A stretch of 64,000 bases of DNA. Origin: Candidatus Komeilibacteria bacterium CG11_big_fil_rev_8_21_14_0_20_36_20. GTDB lineage: Bacteria; Patescibacteriota; Patescibacteriia; UBA1558; GWA2-36-10. The notes below the pieces were generated by a model. The model was given only the letters and a program-made list of their open reading frames with translations, was not told the DNA's origin and ran no database searches. Each line of letters starts with the position of its first letter. The stretch's first letter is position 1. This document shows, piece after piece, positions 7,217-54,371 of this stretch. Made by a program: the position numbers and the translations under genes. The stretch covers positions 31,296 to 95,295 of the forward strand of contig PCWQ01000007.1 in NCBI GenBank assembly GCA_002787405.1, in the 5' to 3' direction.

Positions 7217-7291
7217 TGTTTCAAAATTTAAGGCATAAGAGTTATTTTAATTGCAAATAAGCTTATAACTCCCAATAATTGGCCTATATAA

Positions 7292-8047
7292 CTATACAAT
7301 TATTTTGATAATAATACCTTTACCAAATAATTTAGGGAATATTTTATTTAAAATCGGAAGCCCTTCGTAAATTATAATCTTGTCCAATTTTAAATTTAAA
7401 GCCTTGCTCCACCATCTAACATCCTCTGCTGTCCAAAAACGCAAATGCTCTCCAGGATGAGCCATCCACTGCACAGGAAAACGGCCGCATAACAACCTCA
7501 AACGATGAATATAGTAACCTGTGTTGGGTATAGAGAAAATCAGTGCTTTCCTAGCTTTACTTTTTATATTTAAAACGAATTCCTCTGAGTTAGACATGTG
7601 TTCAATAATCTCTAACCCCAATATATAATCCACCTCCGGCAAATTCTTTAAATTATCAAAATTATTGATATCCATAGTTATTGTTTTGATACCTTCCTGT
7701 TTAGCTTTAACTAAAATTTCACTACTAATATCAACACCAATTCCATTTATACTCATCTTCTCCTTTAAATATTTTAAGATTCCACCATCTCCACAACCTA
7801 TATCTAGAACTTCTGAATTTGGCTCTAACATATCTAAAATATATTTTAGCCTTTGTTTTTGCCAACCAGACAAAACAGAAACCGACCCTTTTCTTTTTAA
7901 TTTCCAATATTTATTATAATCAACGGCTGTGCCGTTATTTAAATCACACCTTGGATAATTAAATAATGACGAAAAATCCCGTTTAATTTTGTATAAAAAA
8001 ATTTTAAACATATTATTAGACATATATATTAGTTTTATATAACTCAA
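7292..8047 (-). CDS. class I SAM-dependent methyltransferase (MetW-like)
   Basis: A SAM-binding motif reads LDIGCGDGGILKYL. The C-terminal segment PNTGYYIHRLRLLCGRFPVQWMAHPGEHLRFWT resembles the MetW family. Confidence 0.6.
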   Translation of the reverse strand: MSYIKLIYMSNNMFKIFLYKIKRDFSSLFNYPRCDLNNGTAVDYNKYWKLKRKGSVSVLSGWQKQRLKYILDMLEPNSEVLDIGCGDGGILKYLKEKMSINGIGVDISSEILVKAKQEGIKTITMDINNFDNLKNLPEVDYILGLEIIEHMSNSEEFVLNIKSKARKALIFSIPNTGYYIHRLRLLCGRFPVQWMAHPGEHLRFWTAEDVRWWSKALNLKLDKIIIYEGLPILNKIFPKLFGKGIIIKIIV

Positions 8048-14130: not shown

Positions 14131-14985
14131 TTATCTTGATGTTAATTTTCTTTTTTTGAAAAATAAAGCTGTTTTTAACCAACTATAATATCTTAAATAT
14201 GTTATTAATATTAAAAATGGAAGAATGGCGATATCTTTAACAAAACCCGAACTTTTAAATGGTGTAATAAAATCGGTCATAAATGGATGACAATAAGATT
14301 TTAATTTTCTACTAATGCTCCAATTCTTAGCGTATTTCTTATAAAATAAACAGTCGCCACGACCATAACGAATCCAACGATCTATAATTGCTCCTATTGA
14401 AGCAAAACCCTTTTCATAACAAATAGCCTCAGAAATGGCAAATTTATGACCATCTTTAGCCATTCTAGTACAAAGATCTGTATCATCACTATTAGTCATA
14501 AAAGTATCATATCTATACTTTTTTAATACCTCTCTTAGAAAGAGAGTTGGCGTGCCAACTACATTCTTATAACCCGGCTTATATTTTTCTCTGTAAATAT
14601 TCTGAGCCCAACCAAGATAAGAATCTGTTTCACTTAACATTGTTATAGCAGAAACTATCGCACACTTATACTTCTCTAGATACTCTATCATCTTTATTAA
14701 AGATCCCTGGGGCATTATATTGTCAGCGCCAACAAAAACGATGTATTTACATTCGGCTGCATCTAATCCTATGTTTCGTGCATTGCCAAGCCCTTTTCGG
14801 CTATCATTAACAATTTTATCTACAAAAGGTCTGGCTATCTCTGTTGTTTTATCAGTTGAACCAGCGTCGACTAAAATTATTTCTTTAGGATTATTTTCTT
14901 TAACCGAGCTTAAGCATCCTTCTATTATCTCCTCACAATTATACGAACAAACAACCACCGATAGATCTAATAATTCATCTTCCAT
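14131..14985 (-). CDS. family 2 glycosyltransferase
   Basis: A GT-A signature reads LSVVVCSYNCEEII...ILVDAGSTDKT. 284 aa. Confidence 0.75.
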   Translation of the reverse strand: MEDELLDLSVVVCSYNCEEIIEGCLSSVKENNPKEIILVDAGSTDKTTEIARPFVDKIVNDSRKGLGNARNIGLDAAECKYIVFVGADNIMPQGSLIKMIEYLEKYKCAIVSAITMLSETDSYLGWAQNIYREKYKPGYKNVVGTPTLFLREVLKKYRYDTFMTNSDDTDLCTRMAKDGHKFAISEAICYEKGFASIGAIIDRWIRYGRGDCLFYKKYAKNWSISRKLKSYCHPFMTDFITPFKSSGFVKDIAILPFLILITYLRYYSWLKTALFFKKRKLTSR

Positions 14986-14986
14986 A

Positions 14987-16417
14987 TTATCTTTTCATGA
15001 CTAATTTTAAATAATGCATAATATAAATAAAGCTATCTTTAGTGTTTTTCACTTCATATTTTAAATTCCTTCTAATAGATGGCACGTCTTTGATTATTAA
15101 AAAAATTCTATTTGGCGGCAATTTAATCAATAAATTTACTAGCCATTTCAAATTCGGGAAACGAATTAAAAGATAACATAATTTATCTAAATTTATTAAT
15201 TGTCTTATATTATCCTGTTTTATAAGCGAATTATTGCTATCGGCGGTTGAACCAGCATTTTTGTAGGTAATTATATCTTTAAGATAATTATTATCAAGGC
15301 AATAATTCCCTATCTGAGTTTTAGGATAAGGTACCAAGACATTAGAGTTAATATCATCTAAATCAAGCTGCCTACATAAATTTATAGTCTCATAAGCATT
15401 ATCCATAGTTTCTCCTGGCCAGCCAAATATAATATCTGCGCCTATTCTAATTTGATATTTTTTTAACAGTTGACAAGCTGCTATTATTTGCTTATTGCTC
15501 ATGTTACGATTTAATAGCTCTTTTCTTAAAGTTTCATTGCCAGTTTGGATACCAATAACAAGCTTATCGCAACCAGCTTTTTTTAAAAGAGCAATATATT
15601 CTTCACTAATATCTTCAACTCTGGCATAAATTATAAATCCTGGCAATTTTTTTTCTATGTACAATTTCAAAAACTCTCTTACTTGTTCTAATTTTACATT
15701 AAAAGTTGCATCTTGAAACCTAGCCCATTTCAAACCATATTTATCTTTAACATATAATAGCTCCGCTATGAGCTTTTGAGGCGAATATAAGCGAAAATGA
15801 GTCCCGCCTCCATCCCTATAAAATTGATTTATCCAATTAGTATAGCAATAGGAACATCGAAAAGGGCAACCTCGTGATAAAATGAACGGTTTTGTCTCTA
15901 ACTTTCTTAATTTCTCATATTTCTTAAAATAAATATCTCTATCAAAAGAAGGTAAATGTTCTATATTATTAACATATGCTATGGCTGTATTTTTTTCCAC
16001 TTGTCCATTTTTCTTAAACCAAATTCCTGGAATATTGAAAAAATTTTCTTTCTTGTCTAGTCGATTTAAAATTTCTAGACAAGCTAACTCGCCGTCACCC
16101 ACACACATTAAATCTATACAATCCTCATTAACTATTTCCGGAAAAACTAAAGTAAATGCCCCGCCAATTAAAGTTAAAATATCTTTATTTATCTTCTTTA
16201 TCTCTCTCAAAATTGCAAGAACATCTTCCTGCTCTCCGATACATAAACTACAAGCAACTATATCGGGCTTAAAATTCATTACTGATTCGTAAAAACTATC
16301 TTCTTCCTCTAAACAAAAAACATCAACTACATGACCATGCTCCTTCAAAACTGAAGATATGGCCATGACGCCTAAATTTTCTAACAAGATATGCTGAAGA
16401 AAAGCAATTCTGGCCAT
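14987..16417 (-). CDS. cobalamin-binding radical SAM enzyme (class B radical SAM)
   Basis: An N-terminal B12-binding-like domain precedes the radical SAM motif CPFRCSYCY. The start codon overlaps the stop of the upstream paralog. Confidence 0.8.
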   Translation of the reverse strand: MARIAFLQHILLENLGVMAISSVLKEHGHVVDVFCLEEEDSFYESVMNFKPDIVACSLCIGEQEDVLAILREIKKINKDILTLIGGAFTLVFPEIVNEDCIDLMCVGDGELACLEILNRLDKKENFFNIPGIWFKKNGQVEKNTAIAYVNNIEHLPSFDRDIYFKKYEKLRKLETKPFILSRGCPFRCSYCYTNWINQFYRDGGGTHFRLYSPQKLIAELLYVKDKYGLKWARFQDATFNVKLEQVREFLKLYIEKKLPGFIIYARVEDISEEYIALLKKAGCDKLVIGIQTGNETLRKELLNRNMSNKQIIAACQLLKKYQIRIGADIIFGWPGETMDNAYETINLCRQLDLDDINSNVLVPYPKTQIGNYCLDNNYLKDIITYKNAGSTADSNNSLIKQDNIRQLINLDKLCYLLIRFPNLKWLVNLLIKLPPNRIFLIIKDVPSIRRNLKYEVKNTKDSFIYIMHYLKLVMKR

Positions 16418-18150
16418 TAAAGAGCCCCCCCTTCCAACAAATTCAATTCCTTGTTTATATCAATTTTAAAATGCTTAAAATAACTTCTAGAAGTCTCACT
16501 TGTCTTTAATATATCTTGAGCTTTATGCCAATTATCTTTAACCTTTAATAAATCCCCTTTGATTTCATACGCTTTGCCGAGAACATAATAAGCAATCGCA
16601 TGATCTGGTGCTAATTCAATCACTCCTTTAAAATCTCTAATTGCCTGATCTACTCTATCAGAATTTAAATTTCTGGAATTTATAAAATTGACCTCGAGAT
16701 TGGCTAAATAATTTTTTTCCAAAATATATTCTTTAGAAAAATTTGGCCAATCTACATTACTTGTAACCAAGGGATACCCATATCTTATACTATCAGCCAC
16801 AATATATCCTTTCTGGAGACACTCTTCAAATATTCTTGACCCAGGAATTGCTTGATAATTCCTAATTAAAGCCCAATCTAGATCTAAAGATCGAGCAAAC
16901 TCCAAAGTTTCTTCAACTTCTTTTTTAGTTTCAAAATGAAAACCCGAAATAAAAAAACCAATAATATAACCCTTGCCTAATTTTCTTATTCTTCTAACAA
17001 CATTTTTTGATATCTCTAAATTTAACACTTTGCCAATTTCTTTAAGTGTTTTCTGGCTGCCAGATTCAAAAGCAAGATTAAAGATAGCTATGCCACTATC
17101 ATACATCTTTTTTATTATTTCTTCATCTAGAAAATTTACACCTAAACCTCCTCCAACTCCCCAGCGAATATTCAAACCTCTTTTGATTATTTCATCCATA
17201 ATAGCCACAGCTTTTTTGGTGCTAACTGTAAAATTATCATCATTAAAAACTATTGCATTAACACCATATTCCTTAATAAGTAATTCTATCTCATCTACCA
17301 CATTTTTGGAATTACGATAACGTATTGATCTACCCCAAATGTGTTTTGCTGAACAAAAAGAACAAGAATATGGACAGCCTCGAGAAGCAGTCATAATGCC
17401 TATTTTAGCATTGTTACGACCTAAAACACGAAAGAGAAAATTTCTGCTTAAATTTCCATATTCTGAAAAATCATTGGGCATAATATAGTCATCCGGCGAT
17501 ATGTTAGTTCTGTCAGGAAAAGGCAACTCGTCTAAATTTTTGATTAAAAATTTATTTTCTTTAAATATAATATTTTTATCATCTCTATAAGCTATTCCAT
17601 GCAAATTTTCTACTCCTTTTTCTTTATTTAAAAAAAGAATTAAATCCATAAAACAAATCTCACCTTCTCCAATTATTGCATAATCTATATTATTATCTTT
17701 TAAAGCATCTGAATAAGAAATTGTAGGATAACTGCCGCCTATGACAGTGATTATGTCTGGTGATATTTTCTTTATAAGTGTACATGTTTGATGAACAATA
17801 TGTGATGTAGAATGAAACAAAGAACTCACTCCTATAATATCTGGGGAAACTTCTTCTATTTTATCTTTTAATAAACCCCAAGCTGCAGACATATCAACCT
17901 TCCCCTTAGAAATAAAATGCTTCATAGCCATTAAATTAGCATCAAAAATTTCAATCTCTACATCATTAATCTTACTTTGCAGATAAGAAGAAATATAACC
18001 AAGACCCAGTGGTGACTCTGCAAACTGACCACCAGATATTACCGTCTCGTAATTATAAGAATTGGTCTCTATAATAAATGGATTTATTAATAAAATTTTC
18101 TTGACTCTAGGCATAATTTTTATATAGTTTTTTTGATTTCCAGACAGCAT
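16417..18150 (-). CDS. cobalamin-binding radical SAM enzyme with a C-terminal TPR-like extension
   Basis: A B12-binding-like N-terminal domain precedes CPYSCSFCS. The C-terminal roughly 100 aa are TPR-like. Confidence 0.8.
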   Translation of the reverse strand: MLSGNQKNYIKIMPRVKKILLINPFIIETNSYNYETVISGGQFAESPLGLGYISSYLQSKINDVEIEIFDANLMAMKHFISKGKVDMSAAWGLLKDKIEEVSPDIIGVSSLFHSTSHIVHQTCTLIKKISPDIITVIGGSYPTISYSDALKDNNIDYAIIGEGEICFMDLILFLNKEKGVENLHGIAYRDDKNIIFKENKFLIKNLDELPFPDRTNISPDDYIMPNDFSEYGNLSRNFLFRVLGRNNAKIGIMTASRGCPYSCSFCSAKHIWGRSIRYRNSKNVVDEIELLIKEYGVNAIVFNDDNFTVSTKKAVAIMDEIIKRGLNIRWGVGGGLGVNFLDEEIIKKMYDSGIAIFNLAFESGSQKTLKEIGKVLNLEISKNVVRRIRKLGKGYIIGFFISGFHFETKKEVEETLEFARSLDLDWALIRNYQAIPGSRIFEECLQKGYIVADSIRYGYPLVTSNVDWPNFSKEYILEKNYLANLEVNFINSRNLNSDRVDQAIRDFKGVIELAPDHAIAYYVLGKAYEIKGDLLKVKDNWHKAQDILKTSETSRSYFKHFKIDINKELNLLEGGAL

Positions 18151-29968: not shown

Positions 29969-29992
29969 AATCTTTTTATCTATTGTAACTCA

Positions 29993-30254
29993 TCAGGTTA
30001 TAAAATCTATTATCTGTTTGGCTCGCTCCAACCAAGTATACTTTTGAACTTTAGAATAAGCTTTATCAGATAATTTCTCTCTTAAATCAGGATTAGGATT
30101 ATCTAATAGAAATTTAATCTGCTTGGCTAAATCTGCAGGATCATCCGGCTGTCAGAAAACCATTGGCCAATGGTGTCTGGCCTAAATCTAAAATTTTAAC
30201 TAAATCTTTTGAACCACATATTCTACAATCATCCTTATGTATATAATTCCTCAT
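29993..30254 (-). pseudogene. gene remnants: the N-terminal 35 aa of a sugar C-methyltransferase (TylCIII/TcaB9-like zinc ribbon) abutting the C-terminal roughly 50 aa of a GT4
   Basis: Minus-strand translation gives MRNYIHKDDCRICGSKDLVKILDLGQTPLANGFLTAG followed by a stop. The next frame reads DDPADLAKQIKFLLDNPNPDLREKLSDKAYSKVQKYTWLERAKQIIDFIT, homologous to the C-terminus of the GT4 at 31673..32863. Confidence 0.6.
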
Positions 30255-30264
30255 AGTTAATTAT

Positions 30265-41942: not shown

Positions 41943-43097
41943 CTACACTTCTTTTAACAATTTTACTGTTTCATTAATTGTATTTTCCCAATTAAATTTC
42001 TTTAAAGTTAACTTAGCATTATTAACTAAATTATCAGCAAATTGTTCATCACTTAATATTTTGATAGCTGCATTCTTTAATTCTTCAATATTATTATAAC
42101 CAATTAATAAACCATTTCTATGATTCTCAATAACTTCCGGGTTACCTCCAATATTAGTTGTAATGATTGGAACGGCTGCTTTAATAGCTTCTAATAAAGT
42201 ATGTGATAAACCTTCATAATTTGTATTTAAAACAAATAGATCTGCTGCCTTAAAATAATTGATAATTTCATCATGTCTAATTCTGCCCAGAAAATGAACA
42301 CTATCGGCAACGTTGAATTCATTGGCTAGATGCTTTAAATTATCCATTTCCGGACCATCTCCCAAAACAAGAAAATTAACGTTACCTATTTTTTGTTTAA
42401 TCTGTGGTAAGGATTTGATAATCCCATCAACTCCTTTCCAGCGGGTAAGCCGACAGGCGGTAACAATTATCTCTGCATCCTGACCATATTGTTTTTTAAT
42501 TTCTTCAACTTTATCTAGTTGAACAACGTTGTCTTTAATAAAATCTATGGAATTATAAATAACTTTAATTCTATCTTTATCAACACCAATTTTTTCAGCG
42601 ATCATGGCAATAAAATTACTAACGGCAATAATTCTATTGGCATTAACCAAAATTTTCTGCCTTCTCTTTTTTAACCTTTCAATCTGATCATTATAAACCT
42701 TATCCTGAAAATCAACGATGTAATCCTGAGTCCAACCGCTGGCTACGGCCATCTCCCAAGCTCCGTCACCGGCAAAACGCACAATATATTTCTTACCGGT
42801 CATCTTTTTAATTAAGTAAGCAAAATATCCGACGCTATAAGTATCGGTAACATAAATTAAATCTGCCTGGCGTGACAATCTGAACATCTTCCATAAATAC
42901 TGCCAACGGCTAAAAAATTTATTTTTGACAATTCTAAAAACTTCTTCCCTATCATTATTATGTTTTTTAATATTGGAATAAGTAATTATCTGTACACTTA
43001 AACCTTTCTCCTTTAAAGAATAGGAAAGGGCTTCCAAAATTGTTGCTGGTCCTCCAATATCCGGCGGATAAATACCTGTTGCGATTAAAATTTTCAT
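41943..43097 (-). CDS. family 4 glycosyltransferase
   Basis: The GT4 C-terminal domain reads EGLSHTLLEAIKAAVPIITTNIGGNPEVI. Confidence 0.8.
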   Translation of the reverse strand: MKILIATGIYPPDIGGPATILEALSYSLKEKGLSVQIITYSNIKKHNNDREEVFRIVKNKFFSRWQYLWKMFRLSRQADLIYVTDTYSVGYFAYLIKKMTGKKYIVRFAGDGAWEMAVASGWTQDYIVDFQDKVYNDQIERLKKRRQKILVNANRIIAVSNFIAMIAEKIGVDKDRIKVIYNSIDFIKDNVVQLDKVEEIKKQYGQDAEIIVTACRLTRWKGVDGIIKSLPQIKQKIGNVNFLVLGDGPEMDNLKHLANEFNVADSVHFLGRIRHDEIINYFKAADLFVLNTNYEGLSHTLLEAIKAAVPIITTNIGGNPEVIENHRNGLLIGYNNIEELKNAAIKILSDEQFADNLVNNAKLTLKKFNWENTINETVKLLKEV

Positions 43098-43202
43098 AAT
43101 TTCTATTTATAATTTATAGTAGCAACCCTGAGCGACCTCGAGTCTGTGAAGAGGGAGTCGAAGGGTGGCGATTAAAATTTTCATAATTTCTATTTATAAT
43201 TT
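43081..43202. repeat. 35-bp perfect direct repeat (43081..43115 and 43168..43202) flanking a 52-bp GC-rich insert
   Basis: The sequence gcgattaaaattttcataatttctatttataattt occurs twice. It contains the start codon plus 18 nt upstream of the GT4 gene at 41943..43097. The intervening sequence is about 60% GC in a background of about 30% GC. Confidence 0.85.
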
Positions 43203-43923
43203 TCTTAAAAATACACACTAATGCTTGACCATAATTTTTAAACATAGGCAGTTTACAAAAATAATTATCAATAGTATGAATAAACTTATTAGAAAACCAA
43301 AATCTTGGTATCTTTAAATAATGAAGTGGAGGAAACAAAGTGCTGGCTCTGGAATCAACTAAAACGAAGTTTTGCTTCTCCATAATCTCAATCCATTTTC
43401 TTAATTTAAAATCATATTGATGTTGATTAGGGTCCCACCCTTCTTTATAAACCGTCTTGCCTTTTCTTCTAATAATTTTACGCCCGACAAATCGAAATAA
43501 ATTTTCCCATTTATCATGCATGGCCGGAAAAGTAATTAATACTTCTCCATCATCTTTTAATAACCTATAAATCTCACTTACTAACTTATCTGGATTAATA
43601 ACGTGCTCGATAATATCAATAGCAATACATTTATCAAAGGGTTCATCTAAAGGTAAATCTTCTACATTGGCTTCCCTGGCCTCAAAATTATCTATTTCAT
43701 AATATTCCATCAATTTTCGGGCGGTTTCTAAACTCTTAGAATTTATATCAACGCCTACCATTCTCTTAAAATTTCCTTTGTAGGTCAGCGCCTGTACACC
43801 GTCACCACAACCAACATTCAACACGGAATCTTCTTTGTTGATTGGAAAAAATTCTGGATAAATAACCCCCGATGTTAATTTCCCTTTTTTAAATTCAAAG
43901 TCTGGATATTTTCTTTCTCGCAT
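43114..43923 (-). CDS. class I SAM-dependent methyltransferase
   Basis: LNVGCGDGVQALTY and LKDDGEVLITFP are present. The last 17 aa or so are encoded by the GC-rich insert and the second repeat copy. Confidence 0.7.
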   Translation of the reverse strand: MRERKYPDFEFKKGKLTSGVIYPEFFPINKEDSVLNVGCGDGVQALTYKGNFKRMVGVDINSKSLETARKLMEYYEIDNFEAREANVEDLPLDEPFDKCIAIDIIEHVINPDKLVSEIYRLLKDDGEVLITFPAMHDKWENLFRFVGRKIIRRKGKTVYKEGWDPNQHQYDFKLRKWIEIMEKQNFVLVDSRASTLFPPLHYLKIPRFWFSNKFIHTIDNYFCKLPMFKNYGQALVCIFKKIINRNYENFNRHPSTPSSQTRGRSGLLL

Positions 43924-45142: not shown

Positions 45143-46342
45143 ATGCCTAATCTTAGCAAAAAAGATAAATTAAAAAACCAAAAAATCCTCTTCTTAATCA
45201 CCCAAACTAAGTGGGGTGGAGCCCAGAAGTATGTTTTAGAATTGGCTGAATACTTTAGCCAAAACAATGAAATTCACCTGACCTATGGAGAAACTGATAA
45301 TATTAACCAGCAGTTTCTAAATTATTGTAAAGAATTAAAAATCAAAACCATACCAATCCCCACTTTACACAGGAAAATAAATTTTACCAAAGATTTCCTA
45401 GCCATAGTCGATACGCTCAAAATTTTGAATAAAGAAAATTATAATTTAATTCACCTCAATAGTTCTAAAGCTAGTTTTGTCGGCAGCGTGGCTGCTAAAA
45501 TGTACAGCTATAACCCAGCCAACACAAAAACGCGGGTTGTTTACACGGCTCATGGCTTTGTCTTCAATGAACCATTGTCTAAAATAAGAAAAAAGGCATA
45601 TATCTTTTCAGAAAAAATAGCGGCTGCTTTTCAATATTTAATCATTGCTGTTTCTGAAACCGACCGGCAAAGTGCTATTGACCAGCAAATATGTAATCCT
45701 AATAAAATTTTCACCGTGCACAACGGCTTGAATTTTGATAAATATAATTTTTATAGTAAAGAAGAAGCCAGAAATAAATTAAATTTATCAGCAGATAAAA
45801 AATATTTTGGCACGATTGCCAGCTTTTATGAAACTAAGGGCTATGAATATTTAGTAGAAGCCATTAAAATACTGCGAAATAAACAGTCTCAAATCTTAAA
45901 AAATTATCAGTGGGTCTTAATTGGTGAAGGACCAAATCTAGAAAAAATAAAAAAACAAGTCGCAGACAATAATTTGTCTCCCTACATTAAATTTATTCCT
46001 GCTCAAGATAATGACTGGAAATTTTTAAAAGCTTTTGACTGTTTTATTTTGCCTTCAATCAAAGAAGGCCTGCCTTATACTATTCTGGAAGCTGGCTTAG
46101 CTCAAATTCCGATCATTGCCACCAAAGTTGGCGGTCTTCCTGAAATCATTACCAATGAAAAAACCGGCTTATTGATAACGCCGGCTAATCCTCTCTCTTT
46201 AGCGCAAGCTATGGAAAAAATGTCTCAAGATCATGATCTCTCTGAAAAATTTGCAGAAAGCAACTATCAAAATATTAAAAATAATTTTAATCTCCAAAAT
46301 ACTTTAGATAAGACTGAAGAACTATATTTAAAATTATTTTAA
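45143..46342 (+). CDS. family 4 glycosyltransferase
   Basis: EGLPYTILEAGLAQIPIIATKVGGLPEII. This is the only plus-strand gene in the right half of the cluster, divergent from 43926..45068. Confidence 0.8.
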   Translation: MPNLSKKDKLKNQKILFLITQTKWGGAQKYVLELAEYFSQNNEIHLTYGETDNINQQFLNYCKELKIKTIPIPTLHRKINFTKDFLAIVDTLKILNKENYNLIHLNSSKASFVGSVAAKMYSYNPANTKTRVVYTAHGFVFNEPLSKIRKKAYIFSEKIAAAFQYLIIAVSETDRQSAIDQQICNPNKIFTVHNGLNFDKYNFYSKEEARNKLNLSADKKYFGTIASFYETKGYEYLVEAIKILRNKQSQILKNYQWVLIGEGPNLEKIKKQVADNNLSPYIKFIPAQDNDWKFLKAFDCFILPSIKEGLPYTILEAGLAQIPIIATKVGGLPEIITNEKTGLLITPANPLSLAQAMEKMSQDHDLSEKFAESNYQNIKNNFNLQNTLDKTEELYLKLF

Positions 46343-46908
46343 CCTTCGAGGTCGATTTCAACTAATCTTCTGATATAAACATCTAAATTCTTAGTATACT
46401 CTTGAAAGTCAACTAGATAATCCTGGTTGACTAATTTAAATTTTGCTCGATGAATATAATCATAATGGGAGCTGTAGAGCCAATCATTAATATTCTTTGT
46501 TAACTTATGTTTAAGCGGATTTAGATTAATATAACTAATGACAGTCTCAAGATAATTATCATCTTCGACAAGTTTAGACTTAAATGAACCCGCAAAAATT
46601 CTCCCTGAATGCTCTTTATGTATATTAAAATATTTACTATAAGAATTAGATAAAAGTGAAATAAAACGAGATATAGCTGATGATTCGACCTTCGAGGTCA
46701 AATCCGGCTCTTGCAATAGAAAATGCCAATGGTTGGGCATTACGCAATAAGCTAGAATTTTAACATGCGTTTTTTCTTTATAAAATAAAGCTTTTTCAAG
46801 AAAATAAGTATAATCTTGCTCCGTATAAAAAATAGTCCTTTTTTCCACCGCACGATTATAAATATGGTGGATAGTATTGGGGAAAAAATTTCTTGGTTTA
46901 TTAGGCAT
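46339..46908 (-). CDS. IS200/IS605-family Y1 (HUH) transposase-like protein, probably a REP-associated tyrosine transposase (RAYT)
   Basis: The HUH motif reads CVMPNHWHFLLQ. A C-terminal WLYSSHYDY (W-x-SS...Y) is present. 189 aa. The gene is flanked by palindromic repeats. Confidence 0.75.
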   Translation of the reverse strand: MPNKPRNFFPNTIHHIYNRAVEKRTIFYTEQDYTYFLEKALFYKEKTHVKILAYCVMPNHWHFLLQEPDLTSKVESSAISRFISLLSNSYSKYFNIHKEHSGRIFAGSFKSKLVEDDNYLETVISYINLNPLKHKLTKNINDWLYSSHYDYIHRAKFKLVNQDYLVDFQEYTKNLDVYIRRLVEIDLEG

Positions 46909-46919
46909 AAAACAAAATC

Positions 46920-46950
46920 AACCTCGAAGGTTGTTTCAACCTTCGAGGTT
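46920..46950. repeat. REP-like hairpin: 13-bp perfect stem (aacctcgaaggtt / aaccttcgaggtt) with a 5-nt loop, immediately 5' of the RAYT gene
   Basis: Inverted repeat verified by eye. Related copies of aaccttcgaggtc lie at 46341..46355, 46686..46700 and 47023..47036. Confidence 0.8.
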
Positions 46951-47033
46951 ATAAATCAAAAATAAAAAAACCGCTTTTCTTCATATGTAAAATAATATCC
47001 AAATCTTACAATATTGTCAACCAACCTTCGAGG

Positions 47034-49307
47034 TCAAGACGGCTGAAACTCGCCGTTTTTAATTCTCTCGATAAAATCTTCGGATTGAGTCAAATATGGC
47101 TCGCCGAATTTTTTAACTTCTTCAGCAATAGCAATGGCCTGATCATTCATCCCCAAACTAGCGTAGGATAAAGCTAAACTAATATAATACTGGGGATTCT
47201 CTGAATACTGCTGCCTCAAAATATCGTAAAAATAAGCCGACCAAGTAAAATCTTGGGCGTTGACTGCTGCACTGGCCATGCGGTTCAAGGGTTCCTCTTG
47301 TTTATAATTCAAATTCATTGAATCCATGGTTTCAAGATATGGCTGCACTTTATCCGGCTGATGACTGGCCAATAAAACCATAACCATATTAATATAAGAT
47401 TCTAAAACATCGTCATTCAAATCTATGGCTTTTTGAAAATTAACCACCAAATCGCTCTGATACTTAGCGGCTTCTTCTGGTTTGCCCTGATCTGTCAGCC
47501 ATAAATAAAGATACAAATCAGCATAGCCCATTTCCTCATAAATTTGCAGTCTAGTAGGACTATATTTTAAAGCCGTTTCTCCCAACGGAAAAACTTTATA
47601 CAATCTATTTGGATCTAAAACATAAGTATAGTTATAATGACGCATAAATAACAAATAATTAGCTACGTCAGCTGGATTTTCTGCAATGCGTTTTTCCAAT
47701 TCCTGATCTATATGTGTGACATACTGTGTGGCATTATAGGGCGTAATTAACTGATGAACAATTAAACCATCAACAAATTCAACAACTCTTCTCCTAAATT
47801 CATTGGTGCCGGAAGTACGGTAATCAATTGCCTGAAAATAAGTATTAACCGCCTGAGGAACATCAACATTTTCCAAATGCAAGGCATCAATCACAGTCAA
47901 ATTGGCTTTAGCTTCTTTAAGATTAACCCAATACATAATTGGACCCAAGGCAATAAGGTAAACCACCAAAATAGCCGCCATAACTTTACGTCCAGTGAAC
48001 TCAAATTTAGGTTTGGTATATTTTTGAGCTATCAAAACTATAATCAAAAACAAAGGTAGATAAGTAACCATGGCCTCAAAAACAAAAATTCCTTGAACAA
48101 TAAAAGCTATAATGGCTAGAGCCAAAATTTGATTGCCAAAATCAATATTTTTTGATTCCTCTTTTCTCCCAGCCGTTGCTTTCTTTAAAACTATATAAAG
48201 CGGCCATAATATTAAAAGACTATACAAAAGCAAACCAATAATGCCCCCCGTAACTAAATGATCAAGAAAAATATTATGAGCTCGGTCAAACCAAACTTGT
48301 GAACCGGCGTGTGAATATATTTCCGGATTAAAATACTTGTTAAAAACAACAGAAAAATTTTCCTGACCATAACCCAAAATCGGCTTTTCTTTAAATCCCT
48401 GCCAAGCGGAATTCCAGGTCATTAAACGGGTCTGGGCGGTTCTTTCTGATAAAGAAATACTGGTCATTCTCCTTAGAGCTTCATTATTCTGAATAAAATC
48501 GCTTGAGCGATTGACATAGATAACGGCGCCCAGCACACACAAAATCAACCCCAGAGCAATTAATGAATATTTGATTTTTTTATGGCTTATTCGAAAAATA
48601 TTGTAGATAACAAAAATCAAGGCACTAGCTAAAATTGCCACAAAAGCACCACGAGTACCGGTCTGAACCATGACAAACAAATCAATCAAAATGGCCACAA
48701 TATAATAAATACTTAAATACTTATTGTGACGTTTAATCATCAAATAAAGACCAAAAAAGACCGCCAACAAAGAATAACCAGCCAGATAAGCAGCATTACC
48801 AATAGTCGAAGCGACCCGACCATCAGTCACTCCTGTTCTATTAATAAAATCAACATTAAAATACTGCAACAAGCCGATTAAGACCACTATTTGAGCGGCA
48901 ACGAAAAATACTTCCCATAAAAATAGCCACTCTTTTCGGTTGGAGATAAAATTACGCAGGATAAAAAATAAAATAAACATGTGAGACCAGAGCAAAAGGC
49001 CTTCTGATCTCTCAATATTACTCCAGAAGCTAAAATAAAAATTATCACCCAGTAAAGAGGAAAGAAACATAGAAACCAATAAGATAAAAAAGACAATCGT
49101 CAGCCAATCAATTTTAACCTTAATTTCTTTCTTCACTAGAACGTAAATGAGCCACAATAAGAGCAAGACTTCCACTAAAATTCTAAAAGCCAGGGCTTTA
49201 CTGTAAATATAGGGAAAGAAAAAATTACTATTAATATAAATAGGGGTCAGCATAATTAGAATCAAAGCTGACCAAATAAGCTTGGAAAATATTTTATCTG
49301 CTTTCAT
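47034..49307 (-). CDS. O-antigen ligase-like (Wzy_C) polytopic membrane protein with C-terminal TPR repeats; paralog of 2625..4739
   Basis: 757 aa. Shared blocks with 2625..4739 include FSFWSNIERSEGLLLW and QTGTRGAFVAILAS. The C-terminal half is TPR-like and soluble. Confidence 0.65.
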   Translation of the reverse strand: MKADKIFSKLIWSALILIMLTPIYINSNFFFPYIYSKALAFRILVEVLLLLWLIYVLVKKEIKVKIDWLTIVFFILLVSMFLSSLLGDNFYFSFWSNIERSEGLLLWSHMFILFFILRNFISNRKEWLFLWEVFFVAAQIVVLIGLLQYFNVDFINRTGVTDGRVASTIGNAAYLAGYSLLAVFFGLYLMIKRHNKYLSIYYIVAILIDLFVMVQTGTRGAFVAILASALIFVIYNIFRISHKKIKYSLIALGLILCVLGAVIYVNRSSDFIQNNEALRRMTSISLSERTAQTRLMTWNSAWQGFKEKPILGYGQENFSVVFNKYFNPEIYSHAGSQVWFDRAHNIFLDHLVTGGIIGLLLYSLLILWPLYIVLKKATAGRKEESKNIDFGNQILALAIIAFIVQGIFVFEAMVTYLPLFLIIVLIAQKYTKPKFEFTGRKVMAAILVVYLIALGPIMYWVNLKEAKANLTVIDALHLENVDVPQAVNTYFQAIDYRTSGTNEFRRRVVEFVDGLIVHQLITPYNATQYVTHIDQELEKRIAENPADVANYLLFMRHYNYTYVLDPNRLYKVFPLGETALKYSPTRLQIYEEMGYADLYLYLWLTDQGKPEEAAKYQSDLVVNFQKAIDLNDDVLESYINMVMVLLASHQPDKVQPYLETMDSMNLNYKQEEPLNRMASAAVNAQDFTWSAYFYDILRQQYSENPQYYISLALSYASLGMNDQAIAIAEEVKKFGEPYLTQSEDFIERIKNGEFQPS

Positions 49308-49314
49308 ATTTAAT

Positions 49315-50019
49315 TTAAAAAGTATGCTCCGGGTCTAATTCTAAAATTTTGTTTTTATAATACTCGGCCTTATTGGCGTCTAGTTGTTTATCTTTAAAGA
49401 AATAATACAAATACTGGTAAAAATTAACATCCGACTGTCCGGCCGGCTTACTCATTCCATCCAACATAATAGTCTCTACTCTATAGGACTCTGCCGGTAA
49501 ATAAGTTTCGTATAAATCAGCATAAGAAACATAATAGTGATAATAGCCAATATTATCTTTGTTAATGGATAAATCAAAATAATAAGCAGCCTGATCATAA
49601 TCTCGGGCAAATGACTTGTAATAGTTGCCTAAATTGGAAAAAGCTAAAGGATTGATGGGATTTAAAACAGTGTCATATTTCCAGGCCTCTACCGCCCCCT
49701 CGAAATCCATCAAGCCAAGCTTAAGATTGCCGATTTCTATCCATAAATCATAAACATCATAGTCATCCGCCTGATGTAAATATCCATAATCATTATTCAG
49801 CCGGTCCACTAAGTTCTGGGTAGACTCTTCATCCATATCCGTATCAGGAAAATCACTAAGCTGATAAACATAATCAATCGGTGGTTGATTATTATTATTT
49901 TGACCTTGGTTGTTATTAGAACCAAAAATCAACCAAATAGCTAGGGCGATAACCGCCAAAATTAAAATAATAAAAAGATTTTTTTTATTCACCCTGTTAG
50001 AAATTTTAAGATTATTCAT
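49315..50019 (-). CDS. hypothetical membrane-anchored protein (N-terminal TM; Asn/Gln-rich linker; Tyr-rich TPR-like C-terminus)
   Basis: A 234-aa ORF with a single N-terminal hydrophobic helix. Confidence 0.4.
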   Translation of the reverse strand: MNNLKISNRVNKKNLFIILILAVIALAIWLIFGSNNNQGQNNNNQPPIDYVYQLSDFPDTDMDEESTQNLVDRLNNDYGYLHQADDYDVYDLWIEIGNLKLGLMDFEGAVEAWKYDTVLNPINPLAFSNLGNYYKSFARDYDQAAYYFDLSINKDNIGYYHYYVSYADLYETYLPAESYRVETIMLDGMSKPAGQSDVNFYQYLYYFFKDKQLDANKAEYYKNKILELDPEHTF

Positions 50020-50117
50020 AAAATAAAACTTAATAATATGACCTCGCTAGATTTTGTGAATTTCTAACGGGGTTCATAATACTTGTCTATTGTATTATAT
50101 CTGCTTATATTTGACAA

Positions 50118-50147
50118 CACCCTTCCCCCTTTACAGGGGGAAGGGTG
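50118..50147 (-). terminator. candidate intrinsic terminator hairpin downstream of the surface-protein gene
   Basis: A 12-bp GC-rich stem (cacccttccccc / gggggaagggtg) with a 6-nt loop lies about 45-70 nt 3' of the stop at 50191. On the minus strand it is followed by a T-rich stretch. Confidence 0.5.
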
Positions 50148-50190
50148 AATTGTCTATCTCTAATTACTTATTGCAAGTAAAAAGATTTTC

Positions 50191-53100
50191 TTAACCTGAC
50201 CAGCTAATAGTATAACTTGGAGTTGACGTAGTGACAGCTCCTAAGCCGGATACGAGGTATCCATTATACCATTGTCCGTATTCTGTAGCGGTAGCTCCTG
50301 TTGTGTCTATACCTCTACCTTTATAGTTGTCTGACCAGACAAAGTTACCTTGATTTAAGGCGCCCCAAGCATCAGCATAGTTAGTATTAATATCTGTGGT
50401 TGGATTACCATAACCATCAGATGACGTCGAAGAAGCAGTATCACCTAACATAGCTACACTAACATTCTCTCCTGTTCCAGCAAGAGCAATAGTACAATTA
50501 TAGTAATAAGTCTCGCTAGAGCCGGCTGAAATTTGTAAAGGCTCTAATTCATCACTATGTGAAATAAGAGGATTATCAAAGGTGTAAGTATTATAGCCAC
50601 CATAGCCGTCACCTCCATCTAAATCGGTTGGATCAGCAGCAGTGCCGACAACATTACCGTCGCTATCTCTTAGATAACAACTGGTAACATTAATAGTACC
50701 ACCAGTAGCCACAGTAAGAGTAGCGCGATATAGCAACACTTCATTGCCCGAAGCATCAGCCGCCACATTAAAGGCATAAAGATCAATTGCGCCGTTAGTC
50801 AAAGATGTAGCTGCGCCTAAAGGAGCGCTGGCAGTTGAATGAGTAACAGTTGGCAAAGCTTTGTGAAGCACCATACCAGTAGTGGTTGAACCATTATAAG
50901 TCTCGGAAGTAACCACATCGTTAGAATCAACACCTGTGGTTTTAACACCATCTGTGCCGCCTAGACCAAATCTGACATCAGCGCCTGGAGTACCAGGAGC
51001 ATTATCAGCACTTGAACTAATAGTTCCTAGGTCAGCTTTAACAGTAATGGTTTTTGAACCGTCTTGAGGAATGGTTAAAGTGTTATTAGGAAAGTTGAAA
51101 GTATAGTATCCAGTTGATGGAATGGCAGCACTACCTAATAAAGTAGAACCGTCATATAAATACACTTTTGAGACATCCTGATAATTACCGGTAGCTGTAC
51201 CAGTAATATTACCGTCAGCCACAAAAACTTTCAATTGATCAAGATCAAGATTTTCATTAAACGCTTCCAGTCGAATATTACCAAAGGTTACTCCAGTAGC
51301 GCCGGCTCTAACAATTGCGGCGCTAGGATTGTTGTAAGTGCTAATGGTCAAAGTGCCGGCTGTGGCTACAGTCATGGTAGCACCCATGTCAGCGGTCAAA
51401 GTAACTATCCCTCTGTTTCCACTAGTAACACCATAAGCAATGACTGAAGCATTAGCTGTGGTGCTTACATCAACTAAACCAAAGATACCTACTTGTTCAG
51501 CAACAGCTCCGGTATTGACATCGGCAATCAACTGAATGGTCTTTGAAGTTCCTTTAGTAAGCACAATTGGATCATCAAAGGCAAAAGTTGAAGAAGCTGA
51601 ATCATAGCCATCGTTGTCTGCTGGGGCATCATTGACTGGACTCTTGGCTACACCACCGCTGCCAAAGACACCGTCATAAATAGTCAAGTTGGTGAAATTG
51701 GTGGAAGAGGCATGAACAACTATTGAAGTTATTCTAATATCTTCACCTGAATTTGTACCGTCAAAGTTCCAAGAACCCACTAAAACATCTTGAGCGCCGG
51801 CAATTACTGTAGCGTTGGCTGGCAAGGTGTTTCTAGTGACAGTCAAATTAGCGGCCTTAACTGTCTGGGTGTTGGTATCAACATTAGCTGCTGGGCTAGC
51901 GGTAATTGAATTACCGGTTACCTGACCAGTAGCAGTAATAGCGCTAGCTGCAGTTGCAAGTCTAGCATAAATAGTATCGTCAGTAGCCCATCCGCCGCTG
52001 ATATTCAAATTACCCATAATTGTATATTCACTCTCGCCAACTGGCAAAGTAAATGTATCCGTGAAAGCTACGGTTAAAGCATCATTGGTAATATCAGTTG
52101 GACCGGCCACAGTTACGCCATTGCTATCAACTATTTTAACTCCTTCCAAAGCATCTTCAATCTGAGCGCCAGAAGAAGAAACAATGGTTAAGGTCAATTC
52201 AGTGACGTCAATTGGTTCACCTTTAACCGTAAATTTAAAGGCGCCTAGAGTTTGGTCGCTTCCAACTGTAACATTGTCAGCACCAACACTGGATCCTCTT
52301 TCCACAGTCATATTACCATTAGCAATTTGAAATTCATTAGCGCTTAAGACTGGCTTAGTAGCAGCAGAACCAGTACCGCTATAGGTTGGGGTAATATTAT
52401 AACCATAAGTATTACCTTTTACTAATAGGTCTGTAGTTCTGTAGATACCTAAATCAACTGTTCGGGCTGAACCGCTCTCAACATCGGCTTGCACCTGATA
52501 TTGATAGGTCTGGCCTTTAGGAATAGTGGTGGCAGCAATACTAAAGTTAATATACTTACCATCAACCACACCGTCGGCGATCTTGGTACCGTCTTTTAAC
52601 AAGGCATATCCAGAAAGATCTTCACTTAAGCTGGCTGTACCTTCTTGGTAAACAGAAACCTGATTAAAGGTCACATCTTCAACTGAACCTGCTTGGATTT
52701 GGAAAGCAAAGAAAGTATAGTCCTGTTTGCCTACTTCAATGGTAGTAGAACTAGCATTGTTATAGGAACCTCTTTGAACAGTAGCTGTACCAATTGTAAT
52801 GGTATGGTTTAAAGTCTGGGTATTACCATAGGCAGGCAATGAGCCAATAACTGAACCACTACCTTTCAAAGTAATAGAAGCTAAACCAAGGGCTGGATTT
52901 TCACCAGCATAGCTGTCTAAAGAAGCAGCCATATTACCGGCTAAATAAATATATTGAGTGGTGTTGGCTGGGATGACAACATCCTTGGTAAAGGTAGCTT
53001 GGTGATTGGAGTTGAAAGTCTTTGAGTTTTGATCAAAAGGAATCATGGTGCTGCCGTCCAAAACATCAATGGTTGAAAAAGCAGCATCCTGCCCGATTCC

Positions 53101-53994
53101 ACCTCTTTGAACAACCATTGTGTCAATGGTTACTCCTTCGCTACCGGTGGTTAATTTAAGTTTGGTGAAAGGATATCTAGCGGCACCTTCAACTACAATG
53201 CCGGAAGCTGGCGTATCGCTAGCCAATGACACTGTTAGGTCGCCACCAGAAACTGGTCCACCGCCTTCACCCGGCATATAACCTGCCAGTTCTGTTTCTT
53301 CACCGGTGATTGATTCGCCGGTTGAATAACCATCTACGTTAGCCACGTCAATAACATAGTCATAACTAAAGTTATTGGCTTCAAAGGCATCAGAAGTAGC
53401 AAATGGTCGGACTGTATCGCCTTCACCGACATAATACAAATCCTCGCCCACCTGCAGCAATGTACCTTCTGGATACATAGTGCTTAAATCAGAACCAGTG
53501 GTATAGCTGGATGAAAAATAACCTGGGATAACATCTAGAACTCTAGATCCCCAATCGGCACCATACAAATCTTCAGCCACGTCTCCTGTAGGAATCCAGT
53601 GGAGTGTTCCACCCGGACCAACAGCATAAATTTTGGCTGTATTCATATGGGTAACCAATTTGGTTCCCGGTCGATAAGTCACGGCGCCGCCGTCTGCATA
53701 CAAATCCAGTTCAGCTACGTTAACTCTGACCACATTGTCAAAGTTATCATACCAAGTATTATATGTTTTTCCATCTGGGAAAACATATTTCATACCATCT
53801 GAACCAATGTAATAAACAGCTGCACCAGATTGACCTTCTAAGGCAAGCAAAGAGCCTGCTCCGTAATTACCAGCGGCTTTGGCTACTGGCGCAAAAGATA
53901 CGCCAACTGACCAAAGGGCAGTGGTAATCACCAAAGAAAATACAGCAAATTTCTTTAATAAGTGCATGTTTCTTTTTTTTAAAAAAGTCCCCAA
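50191..53994 (-). CDS. large secreted Thr/Ser/Gly/Ala/Val-rich surface protein (S-layer or adhesin-like, repeated beta-sandwich-like modules)
   Basis: 1267 aa. The signal-peptide-like N-terminus reads MGTFLKKRNMHLLKKFAVFSLVITTALWSVGVSFAPVAKAAG. Two related modules of about 90 aa are followed by more than 1000 aa of low-complexity T/S/G-rich repeats. GC content is about 45% against about 30% elsewhere. Confidence 0.7.
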   Translation of the reverse strand: MGTFLKKRNMHLLKKFAVFSLVITTALWSVGVSFAPVAKAAGNYGAGSLLALEGQSGAAVYYIGSDGMKYVFPDGKTYNTWYDNFDNVVRVNVAELDLYADGGAVTYRPGTKLVTHMNTAKIYAVGPGGTLHWIPTGDVAEDLYGADWGSRVLDVIPGYFSSSYTTGSDLSTMYPEGTLLQVGEDLYYVGEGDTVRPFATSDAFEANNFSYDYVIDVANVDGYSTGESITGEETELAGYMPGEGGGPVSGGDLTVSLASDTPASGIVVEGAARYPFTKLKLTTGSEGVTIDTMVVQRGGIGQDAAFSTIDVLDGSTMIPFDQNSKTFNSNHQATFTKDVVIPANTTQYIYLAGNMAASLDSYAGENPALGLASITLKGSGSVIGSLPAYGNTQTLNHTITIGTATVQRGSYNNASSTTIEVGKQDYTFFAFQIQAGSVEDVTFNQVSVYQEGTASLSEDLSGYALLKDGTKIADGVVDGKYINFSIAATTIPKGQTYQYQVQADVESGSARTVDLGIYRTTDLLVKGNTYGYNITPTYSGTGSAATKPVLSANEFQIANGNMTVERGSSVGADNVTVGSDQTLGAFKFTVKGEPIDVTELTLTIVSSSGAQIEDALEGVKIVDSNGVTVAGPTDITNDALTVAFTDTFTLPVGESEYTIMGNLNISGGWATDDTIYARLATAASAITATGQVTGNSITASPAANVDTNTQTVKAANLTVTRNTLPANATVIAGAQDVLVGSWNFDGTNSGEDIRITSIVVHASSTNFTNLTIYDGVFGSGGVAKSPVNDAPADNDGYDSASSTFAFDDPIVLTKGTSKTIQLIADVNTGAVAEQVGIFGLVDVSTTANASVIAYGVTSGNRGIVTLTADMGATMTVATAGTLTISTYNNPSAAIVRAGATGVTFGNIRLEAFNENLDLDQLKVFVADGNITGTATGNYQDVSKVYLYDGSTLLGSAAIPSTGYYTFNFPNNTLTIPQDGSKTITVKADLGTISSSADNAPGTPGADVRFGLGGTDGVKTTGVDSNDVVTSETYNGSTTTGMVLHKALPTVTHSTASAPLGAATSLTNGAIDLYAFNVAADASGNEVLLYRATLTVATGGTINVTSCYLRDSDGNVVGTAADPTDLDGGDGYGGYNTYTFDNPLISHSDELEPLQISAGSSETYYYNCTIALAGTGENVSVAMLGDTASSTSSDGYGNPTTDINTNYADAWGALNQGNFVWSDNYKGRGIDTTGATATEYGQWYNGYLVSGLGAVTTSTPSYTISWSG

Positions 53995-54371
53995 ACATTA
54001 TTTAATCATCTAAAATATAAGCGCTTCTGTTTGTTTTCTAAACAGAAACCAAACCATTATCTTGAGTGCCCCCAGCATACGCCGGACCGACCTTTCAGAC
54101 AACACTAAGCCAATGGGCTTATAAGTTAGTTTGATAAAAATTTTGTTTAGGAACGACTAATTAGAGCCCGAAATTGATTTCTCAACTTCAGGACTTACCA
54201 CATACCAATAAGTATATGGTCAAATCCCTAATCGCGCGCGATTTAGCGATAAGTTAGGGATAATAGCTTTCAAACTTTTTGAAAGCTAAATACCCTCAAC
54301 CTATCTGCCAACTCGACAAGCTGGATAATCGCGCTTTAAGGATTTTTTATAATTAATTATTAAACGACAAA

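Follow-up and report, generated by a model that had tools for sequence, protein, structure and literature searches.

The 64-kb stretch of Komeilibacteria DNA analysed here, which we call the window, carries on its minus strand a gene for a putative HUH nuclease of the REP-associated tyrosine transposase (RAYT) type, REP standing for repetitive extragenic palindrome. The gene lies between a Wzy_C gene and a convergent GT4 glycosyltransferase gene, and it is accompanied by five copies of a short palindromic motif (Table 1). A sequence-only reading of the same DNA had described a 189-aa open reading frame (ORF) with an HUH motif and a W-x-SS C-terminus, and this is what we find: the ORF contains YCVMPNHWHFLL, which holds the HUH motif, and DWLYSSHYDY, with W-x-Y-S-S in its C-terminal part.

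The motif is sharply confined. When up to one mismatch is allowed, the 12-mer AACCTTCGAGGT occurs five times in the 64 kb, against 0.09 copies expected, and none of 100 shuffled sequences reaches five. The 9-mer core CCTTCGAGG recovers the identical five sites. All five lie within a 695-bp unit around the RAYT gene. The earlier observation is thereby confirmed, and we conclude that the RAYT locus is a real, non-chance feature. The copies occupy four positions along the gene, which we number as stations 1 to 4 in the order of the sense strand.

The stations differ in form. Station 1 overlaps the stop codon of the Wzy_C gene (TGA, minus strand, 47034-47036), and station 4, read on the other strand, begins inside the stop codon of the GT4 gene (TAA, 46340-46342); both overlaps had been proposed, as had the copy inside the RAYT coding sequence (station 3), and all three are present. 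These two boundary copies share one orientation and lie 682 nt apart, forming a 13-nt direct repeat, GACCTCGAAGGTT; as hairpins they are very weak (-1.7 kcal/mol, no better than shuffles). Station 2 consists of two inverted copies (arms 46920-46933 and 46937-46950) that fold with a DNA energy of -15.4 kcal/mol (z = -9.5). It had been described as a perfect hairpin with a 13-bp stem just 5' of the gene; it is indeed perfect and so placed, but the stem measures 14 bp. On the sense strand this hairpin is followed by ATTTTGTTTT and then by the ATG, an arrangement that scored as terminator-like, and the hairpin looks like a terminator or an attenuator. The only Shine-Dalgarno-like GAGGT is buried in it. 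The TTGACA-17-TATTAT site upstream is a putative promoter. An Rfam search gave sub-threshold chance matches only.

Station 3 folds by itself at -6.7 kcal/mol. In an AlphaFold (AF2) model of the protein it corresponds to the loop between the HUH strand (E60-66) and the helix H78-97, where pLDDT dips at residues 71-80, and it falls in a region of variable length in the RAYT alignment.

Table 1. Positions in the window of the RAYT gene, its motif copies and its leader elements
Feature	Position	Strand	Description
RAYT-like HUH/Y1 nuclease gene	46339..46908	minus	189-aa ORF
Copies of AACCTTCGAGGT	starts at 46341, 46687, 46921 (minus), 46938, 47023		all between 46341 and 47034
Station 1, single copy	47023..47035	minus	sense GACCTCGAAGGTT; ends 2 nt before the -35 box
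Promoter-like site TTGACA-17-TATTAT	46992..47020	minus	11/12 consensus matches; reads into the RAYT gene
Leader box GAAGAAAAGCG	46972..46982	minus	conserved with the upstream regions of 15 loci side by side
Station 2, two inverted copies	46920..46950	minus	perfect hairpin, 14-bp stem, 3-nt loop
Station 3, in-frame copy in the coding sequence	46687..46699	minus	codons L-T-S-K-V-E, residues ~68-73
Station 4, single copy	46341..46353	minus	encodes the last RAYT residues, D-L-E-G, and the stop (..IDLEG*)
18-nt inverted repeat, 94% complementary	46341..46358 / 46915-46932		arms bracket the RAYT ORF exactly, REPtron-like

Class of the protein

Profile and fold comparisons place the protein beside the RAYTs. 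It matches Pfam Y1_Tnp at 39 bits and the NCBIfam family REP_Tyr_transpos (NF047646) at 70 bits, over profile positions 3-146 of 146, whereas the IS200 TnpA models of NCBIfam give no match. When the single sequence was searched against the PDB, Escherichia coli TnpA_REP (4ER8) was the only real match (E = 0.003); with a profile of 27 sequences 4ER8 rose to E = 1e-9, against E = 0.28 for the TnpA of ISDra2. The AlphaFold model (pLDDT 89.1, pTM 0.87) has a helical C-terminal extension, and its best Foldseek match is again 4er8_A (E = 3e-9, TM 0.63/0.72); the transposases of ISDra2, IS608 and IS200 rank below it.

Residues H60, H62, Y126 and N130 are invariant among 27 homologues, and Y126 is the candidate catalytic tyrosine, within the motif YINLNP (Y126-x-x-x-N130-P). 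Quentin et al. (2018; PMC6006769) found that Y---NP marks class 2 (RAYT-like) proteins and Y---Q class 1 (IS200) proteins. IS200 class 1 proteins carry Y-x-x-x-Q on a core of only ~150 aa; the window protein has YINLNP and 189 aa. Because it combines the Y-x-x-x-N-P signature with a best match to 4ER8 in both sequence and fold, we assign it to the RAYT class (class 2 TnpA_Y1) and not to the IS200 class, as the sequence-only reading had suggested. Its key motifs are NHWH, F-A (F-Q in the clade consensus), YINLNP and an SS tail. By the pattern NH[WF]H, F-Q, YI-x-LNP and SS tail the nearest subclass appears to be 2.1, while the in-frame repeat of the gene resembles subclass 2.4.

The motif in homologous loci

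Many homologues with 45-66% identity were found, nearly all in Patescibacteria or in unnamed metagenome bins. The clade is thus common in Patescibacteria. The earlier reading had singled out a RAYT in one genome like those of the candidate phyla radiation (CPR), but the system is not peculiar to the source genome. We compared the window with 14 other loci of the clade, making 15 in all; loci read from other genomes or contigs carry L-numbers below.

Each of the 14 loci has its own local motif of 11-13 nt, of the form (A/G)ACC-N5-GGT(T/C), repeated at the same stations as in the window. The 15 loci together hold 74 local copies in at least 8 different variants, among them ACCTCGAAGGT, ACCTCGGAGGT, ACCCCTAGGGT, ACCCGACGGGT, ACCTCGCAGGT, ACCCCACGGGT, ACGTCGGACGT, ACCCCGCGGGT and ACCCTGAGGGT. 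Station 1 lies ~90-230 nt upstream of the ATG and in most loci adjoins or overlaps the TTGACA box; station 2 lies ~23-80 nt upstream of the ATG and is found in about half of the loci. Station 3, at +203 to +256 in the ORF and directly after the HUH motif, occurs in all 14, and station 4 is on or just past the stop codon in 12 of the 14, with a range from 13 nt before the ORF end to ~35 nt beyond it. Since the variant differs from locus to locus and yet tracks the gene at the same positions in 14 loci, the motif copies are judged cognate to the RAYT gene on sequence grounds. Station 3 is read in differing frames (T-S-K-V, N-P-T-G-W and others), and the insert is a single copy, a doublet or longer; the conserved feature is therefore the DNA and not a peptide. 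Distant homologues of the YIHLNP type (210-230 aa) are mostly without a repeat shared by ORF and flanks.

The motif can be drawn as a hairpin with a 5-bp stem and a 3-nt loop (consensus of 37 distinct copies nCAACCTCnnAGGTTGAn), in which the outer bases A-C...G-T are invariant and the centre varies. Across the 37 copies 95.7% of stem cells are paired, against 84.6% in shuffles, and none of 500 shuffles reaches the observed value. The innermost position is paired in every copy, as UA in 19 and as CG in 18, and shifting the partner by one column lowers pairing to ~52%. The stem changes between variants are thus compensatory.

Such covariation fits a symmetric duplex site equally well, and the copies might accordingly be operators, bound by a dimer of the RAYT or of a host protein, which autoregulate a domesticated gene unrelated to DNA movement. 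The position of station 1, which in most loci touches the -35 box or extends over it, the presence of station 2 in the leader, the invariant outer A-C...G-T around a variable centre, and a single-copy, vertically inherited gene would all suit operators. The copies in the coding sequence and on stop codons, however, have no obvious operator role, motif copies without a RAYT occur at other gene ends (see below), and the solved relatives (4ER8 and the IS608 and ISDra2 complexes) bind single-strand hairpins. We therefore regard operator sites as quite unlikely.

The leader has conserved elements of its own. A leader box, AAGAAAAGCGAT, is conserved in the window and in L065-L274. In simpler relatives AAGAAAAGCG runs directly into the ATG; in other loci a stretch of 50-60 nt stands between the leader box and the ATG and is made up of the station-2 hairpin, a second AT-rich hairpin and a T-run, and in L074 the leader box occurs on both sides of this stretch. 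We also weighed whether the leader holds a conserved upstream ORF (MKKS...), and rejected the idea because its start codon and frame differ between loci. In one locus, L089, the RAYT is a pseudogene (6438-6799) with an internal deletion that begins at the usual in-frame hairpin site and ends before D-W-x-Y-T-S-H; the pseudogene keeps its flanking hairpins.

Residence of the gene and motif copies elsewhere

The exact window protein was found in one context in every contig read, with no near-identical copies seen, and no second RAYT copy exists in the ~83 kb read from the source genome, which comprise the window and ~19 kb of additional flank (~8-10% of an assumed ~1 Mb genome). Orthologues elsewhere hold their position over considerable divergence. 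L065 and L271, in the same position, have RAYTs 64% identical, beside RecG at 62%, a VirB4-like protein at 82% and EF-P at 71%, and the hairpin variant has changed at stations 1-3 between these two orthologues; in L269 and L274, again in the same position, the RAYTs are 72% and the GT4 proteins 74% identical. Because orthologues stay in place while neighbouring proteins diverge to 60-80% identity, the gene behaves as a resident, vertically inherited gene and not as an active insertion sequence (IS). RAYTs in general behave as resident genes (Bertels et al. 2017).

One genome carries two paralogues. L065 (10001-10582) and L067 (10001-10576) lie ~10 kb apart on one 847-kb JGI contig, point outward from the ~10-kb segment between them, and are 55% identical to each other and 55-64% identical to the window protein; each has its own motif variant at all its stations. 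The segment encodes S6, SSB, S18, EF-P and type IV secretion proteins (PrgI / TraC-like / VirB4-like). One paralogue of the pair occurs at the same position in another genome (L271), and the L065/L067 proteins are also recorded on a 1.04-Mb contig.

Presence of the RAYT is lineage-specific. Three related genomes have the gene order of the window (proteins of ~1250 and ~228 aa, Wzy_C and the convergent GT4), with neighbouring proteins 47-69% identical to those of the window; L279 and L281 also share further GT4 and radical-SAM genes with the window order. The RAYT is absent from the orthologous Wzy_C/GT4 junction in all three (L279/L280, L281/L282 and L283), and this junction is a variable spot among related genomes: L281/L282 have an unrelated GC-rich terminator hairpin there (L281 8296-8346), and L283 has a 494-aa ORF and no RAYT (6269-7763).

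These absences are among the points that would suit an ordinary IS200-like IS, in which the ~695-bp unit spanning the hairpins at 47023 and 46353 is mobile, the boundary copies are its ends and the other copies are incidental. The unit has the ~700-bp size of IS200, its boundary hairpins form the same-orientation 13-nt direct repeat noted above, the promoter and the terminator-like leader hairpin lie inside these ends, and if everything between the direct repeats were deleted, the stop codons of both neighbours would remain whole; the genomic context, moreover, varies among distant homologues. Against this stand the Y---NP signature in place of the class 1 Y---Q, the far better match to TnpA_REP than to the TnpA of IS608 or ISDra2, the single context in all contigs read without near-identical copies, the two paralogues of one genome that are only 55% identical and have different hairpins, and the synteny of orthologues across 60-80% divergence of housekeeping proteins. 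We consider an ordinary IS unlikely.

Copies of the motif away from the gene are rare. A genome with the repeat density of E. coli would have about ten of them in 83 kb. Our own Poisson estimate (95%) from the count reported below puts the load of dispersed copies in the source genome at roughly fewer than 36 per Mb. Single copies are not countable in large collections, because a 14-base motif pattern gave 58 single chance matches on viral contigs. Among the relatives, ~262 kb of flanking sequence yielded 2 RAYT-less motif sites, compared with 74 local copies. The first, in L272, is a 51-nt module made up of two hairpins and a spacer. It matches the segment 5' of the RAYT promoter at 50 of 51 positions, its edges are the hairpin edges, and it lies, 6 kb from the RAYT, on the stop codon of a gene for a reverse transcriptase. 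In L089 a terminator-like doublet lies 4 kb from the RAYT. In addition, the 48-nt gap at the RAYT-less L279/L280 junction (L279 8326-8373) holds a solo perfect 26-nt palindrome (halves CAACCTTCGAGGTT and AACCTCGAAGGTTG), flanked by an A-run and a T-run; it is the window's own motif and matches the station-1 doublet of L065 at 32 of 32 positions. In this clade, hairpin modules are thus also met with at gene ends away from the RAYT, but rarely. The idea that a RAYT had inserted into and split such a doublet was rejected, as the left copy in the window is oriented opposite to the left arm of the L279 doublet. L272 also holds a pair resembling a diversity-generating retroelement (bAvd and an RVT_1 reverse transcriptase; 14434-16843), 4-6 kb from its RAYT; the reverse-transcriptase gene of this pair is the one whose stop codon bears the 51-nt module.

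The motif copies might also be plain terminators or attenuators of a compact genome, alike for reasons unrelated to the enzyme. A doublet with a T-run does score as terminator-like, the solo doublet of L279 and the doublet of L089 lie between or after genes and are flanked by A-runs and T-runs, and in L281 the junction that holds the L279 doublet has an unrelated GC-rich terminator instead. This account leaves unexplained the in-frame copy at one fixed protein site in 14 loci and the joint change of the variant at several stations of each locus, and no other intergenic region in 83 kb uses the motif; we judge it very improbable.

When metagenomes were scanned for pairs of motif copies within 30 nt, the loop being degenerate, the matches listed included at least 98 doublets of 29 nt (11 + 7 + 11), on unrelated contigs of 28-71% GC. 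Among the 98 doublets listed (L149-L228), 51 are clearly without an adjacent RAYT and 2 are inside RAYT genes. Their form is ACCT-YSR-AGGT, 7 nt, ACCT-YSR-AGGT, for example AAACCTTCAAGGTTTTGGAAACCTTGAAGGTTT, which suggests a wider class of repeats with an ACCT-N3-AGGT core. Tandem arrays of doublets occur in L152 (44-nt period), L153 (111-nt period) and L203.

The sequence-only reading had also proposed that the RAYT may drive rearrangements at 43081..43202 and 29993..30254. No motif copy lies at or near either place, and the proposed link is therefore without support. At the first, 43081-43115 and 43168-43202 form a perfect 35-nt direct repeat that is not repeated elsewhere in the window and covers the start codon and upstream region of a GT4 gene (41943..43097, minus strand). 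Between the repeats lies a 52-nt imperfect palindrome (43116-43167; DNA energy -8.2 kcal/mol, z = -2.0), which now forms the 3' end of a methyltransferase ORF (43114..43923, minus strand); the whole of 43081-43202 has the look of a small insertion accompanied by a long duplication. A tie between this palindrome and the RAYT motif was rejected: the palindrome and the motif flank have no more than a 9-mer in common, and in 64 kb such a match is near chance. The second place, 29969-30264, is a stretch of ~296 nt without an ORF of at least 40 aa, between two minus-strand genes in a tightly packed region; it contains the palindrome ccattggccaatgg and may be a decayed gene. Elsewhere in the window, GC content is 0.42 at 50001-54000, against ~0.29-0.36 in the remainder.

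Interpretation and comparison with known systems

Taking these results together, we think it probable that the locus is a compact REPtron, that is, a single-copy resident RAYT-class nuclease together with its own cognate mini-hairpins. By analogy with its solved relatives, the protein would bind the mini-hairpins on single-stranded DNA and would cut and rejoin the DNA beside them. It would act mostly in cis, as copies pile up at its own gene and turn over in concert, such that copies would accumulate and be renewed there. Occasionally a hairpin-bounded module would be moved to another gene end and serve there as a terminator, while most other insertions would be lost in tightly packed genomes. 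In the source genome few copies or none would lie outside the 695 bp of the gene itself. Expression would probably be held very low, as in IS200, by the leader hairpin and its T-run together with the hairpin beside the -35 box.

Several points weigh against this REPtron interpretation. The 11-mer core, with up to one mismatch, has no copy outside the 695-bp unit in ~83 kb, so that many dispersed copies, the defining property of REPs, are not shown here; of the earlier proposal of a RAYT with cognate REPs, the cognate hairpins stand, over 14 loci, while REPs in the sense of dispersed copies remain unproven. The consensus of the 37 copies lacks a GT[AG]G foot (GTAG or GTGG), and a single copy makes a marginal hairpin (-1.7 kcal/mol). 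The covariation fits a single-strand hairpin and a palindromic duplex binding site alike and cannot separate the two. The 70 bits scored by the protein fall short of the NCBIfam equivalog cut-off of 80. Binding and cleavage of the hairpins are inferred from the action of TnpA_REP on REPs and of the IS608 and ISDra2 TnpA on end hairpins, and the concerted change of the four stations is not accounted for by any observation.

A more specific reading, which we offer only tentatively and consider rather doubtful, is that the clade represents an undescribed RAYT subclass of Patescibacteria, whose hairpins would make up a self-contained, co-evolving four-station module on the gene of the enzyme in place of a genome-wide population of REPs. 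Under the same tentative reading, the enzyme would act mainly in cis, renew or exchange hairpin cassettes at its own locus, set its own expression and rarely seed terminators at other gene ends, as a minimal, long-lived form of REP/RAYT system in ultra-small genomes.

Most known REP/RAYT systems come from Proteobacteria, Cyanobacteria and Bacteroidetes, where the joint persistence of a single-copy 'domesticated' transposase and its repeats is a standing puzzle. The REPtron interpretation would extend this known proteobacterial kind of system to ultra-small bacteria (Komeilibacteria, CPR), in a clade whose repeats have shrunk to 13 nt and are almost confined to the gene, yet are conserved in position and co-vary with it. 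If the enzyme works on these sites, they would provide a small, tractable model for what determines hairpin recognition, for enzyme-repeat co-evolution and for the turning of modules into gene-end terminators. For annotation, 'transposase' calls of this clade in CPR genomes denote resident RAYT-type genes and not active insertion sequences. Our literature search found no paper on RAYT/REP in Patescibacteria, the nearest one only mentioning a K07491 annotation in an archaeon, and Patescibacteria are not listed for any subclass in Table 1 of PMC6006769.

Among the described RAYT subclasses, the closest pattern to this clade is that of subclass 2.1 (Bertels group 1; TIRYT-like), with NH[YF]H, FQ, Y[IV]HLNP and a proximal SS tail. 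Subclass 2.1 differs in the greater length of its proteins (median 238 aa), in their C-terminal domain resembling a helix-turn-helix and in the lack of REPs, whereas the window clade has ~190 aa and cognate hairpins; the distant YIHLNP homologues, without shared internal and flanking repeats, agree with what is reported for subclass 2.1. Subclass 2.4 (Bertels group 4) offers a precedent for the in-frame copy at 46687-46699, since in-frame REP inserts between HuH and Y are documented there, and its median length of 194 aa is similar (PMC6006769). Its motifs are NH[IFV]H / WQ / YIxNNP, against NHWH / F-A (consensus F-Q) / YINLNP in the window, and its REPs are long or 'double-foot' with GT[AG]G, in contrast to the foot-less 13-nt hairpins here. 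Subclasses 2.6 and 3 likewise have no GT[AG]G foot (PMC6006769).

IS200 (IS200/IS605 family, class 1 TnpA) belongs to the same fold superfamily and is likewise a ~700-bp unit with hairpins near both ends. Such subterminal hairpins are common to REPtrons and IS200 and therefore do not discriminate between them. The IS200 leader has a terminator-like hairpin and a buried ribosome-binding region, and expression is low. The leader of the window RAYT resembles it in these features. IS200 differs in having Y---Q where the window protein has Y---NP, and in being multi-copy and near-identical (PMC6006769 Table 1), whereas the gene in the window is single-copy and its synteny is conserved across species.

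Precedents exist for the in-frame copy and for the flanking palindromes. There are none for the tiny foot-less hairpins, for a fixed layout of four stations that change in concert, or for dispersed copies being nearly absent. The E. coli TnpA_REP REPtron (4ER8; subclass 2.2 of Quentin et al. 2018) differs in several ways. Its protein is ~20% identical to that of the window, and against its REPs the window has 13-nt mini-hairpins that lack the GT[AG]G foot. The window system also shows no dispersed copies in 83 kb and has extra copies in the leader, in the coding sequence and on the stop codon. What the two share is the HUH motif with a single tyrosine, the Y---NP signature and the arrangement of a single-copy gene bracketed by inverted cognate palindromes.

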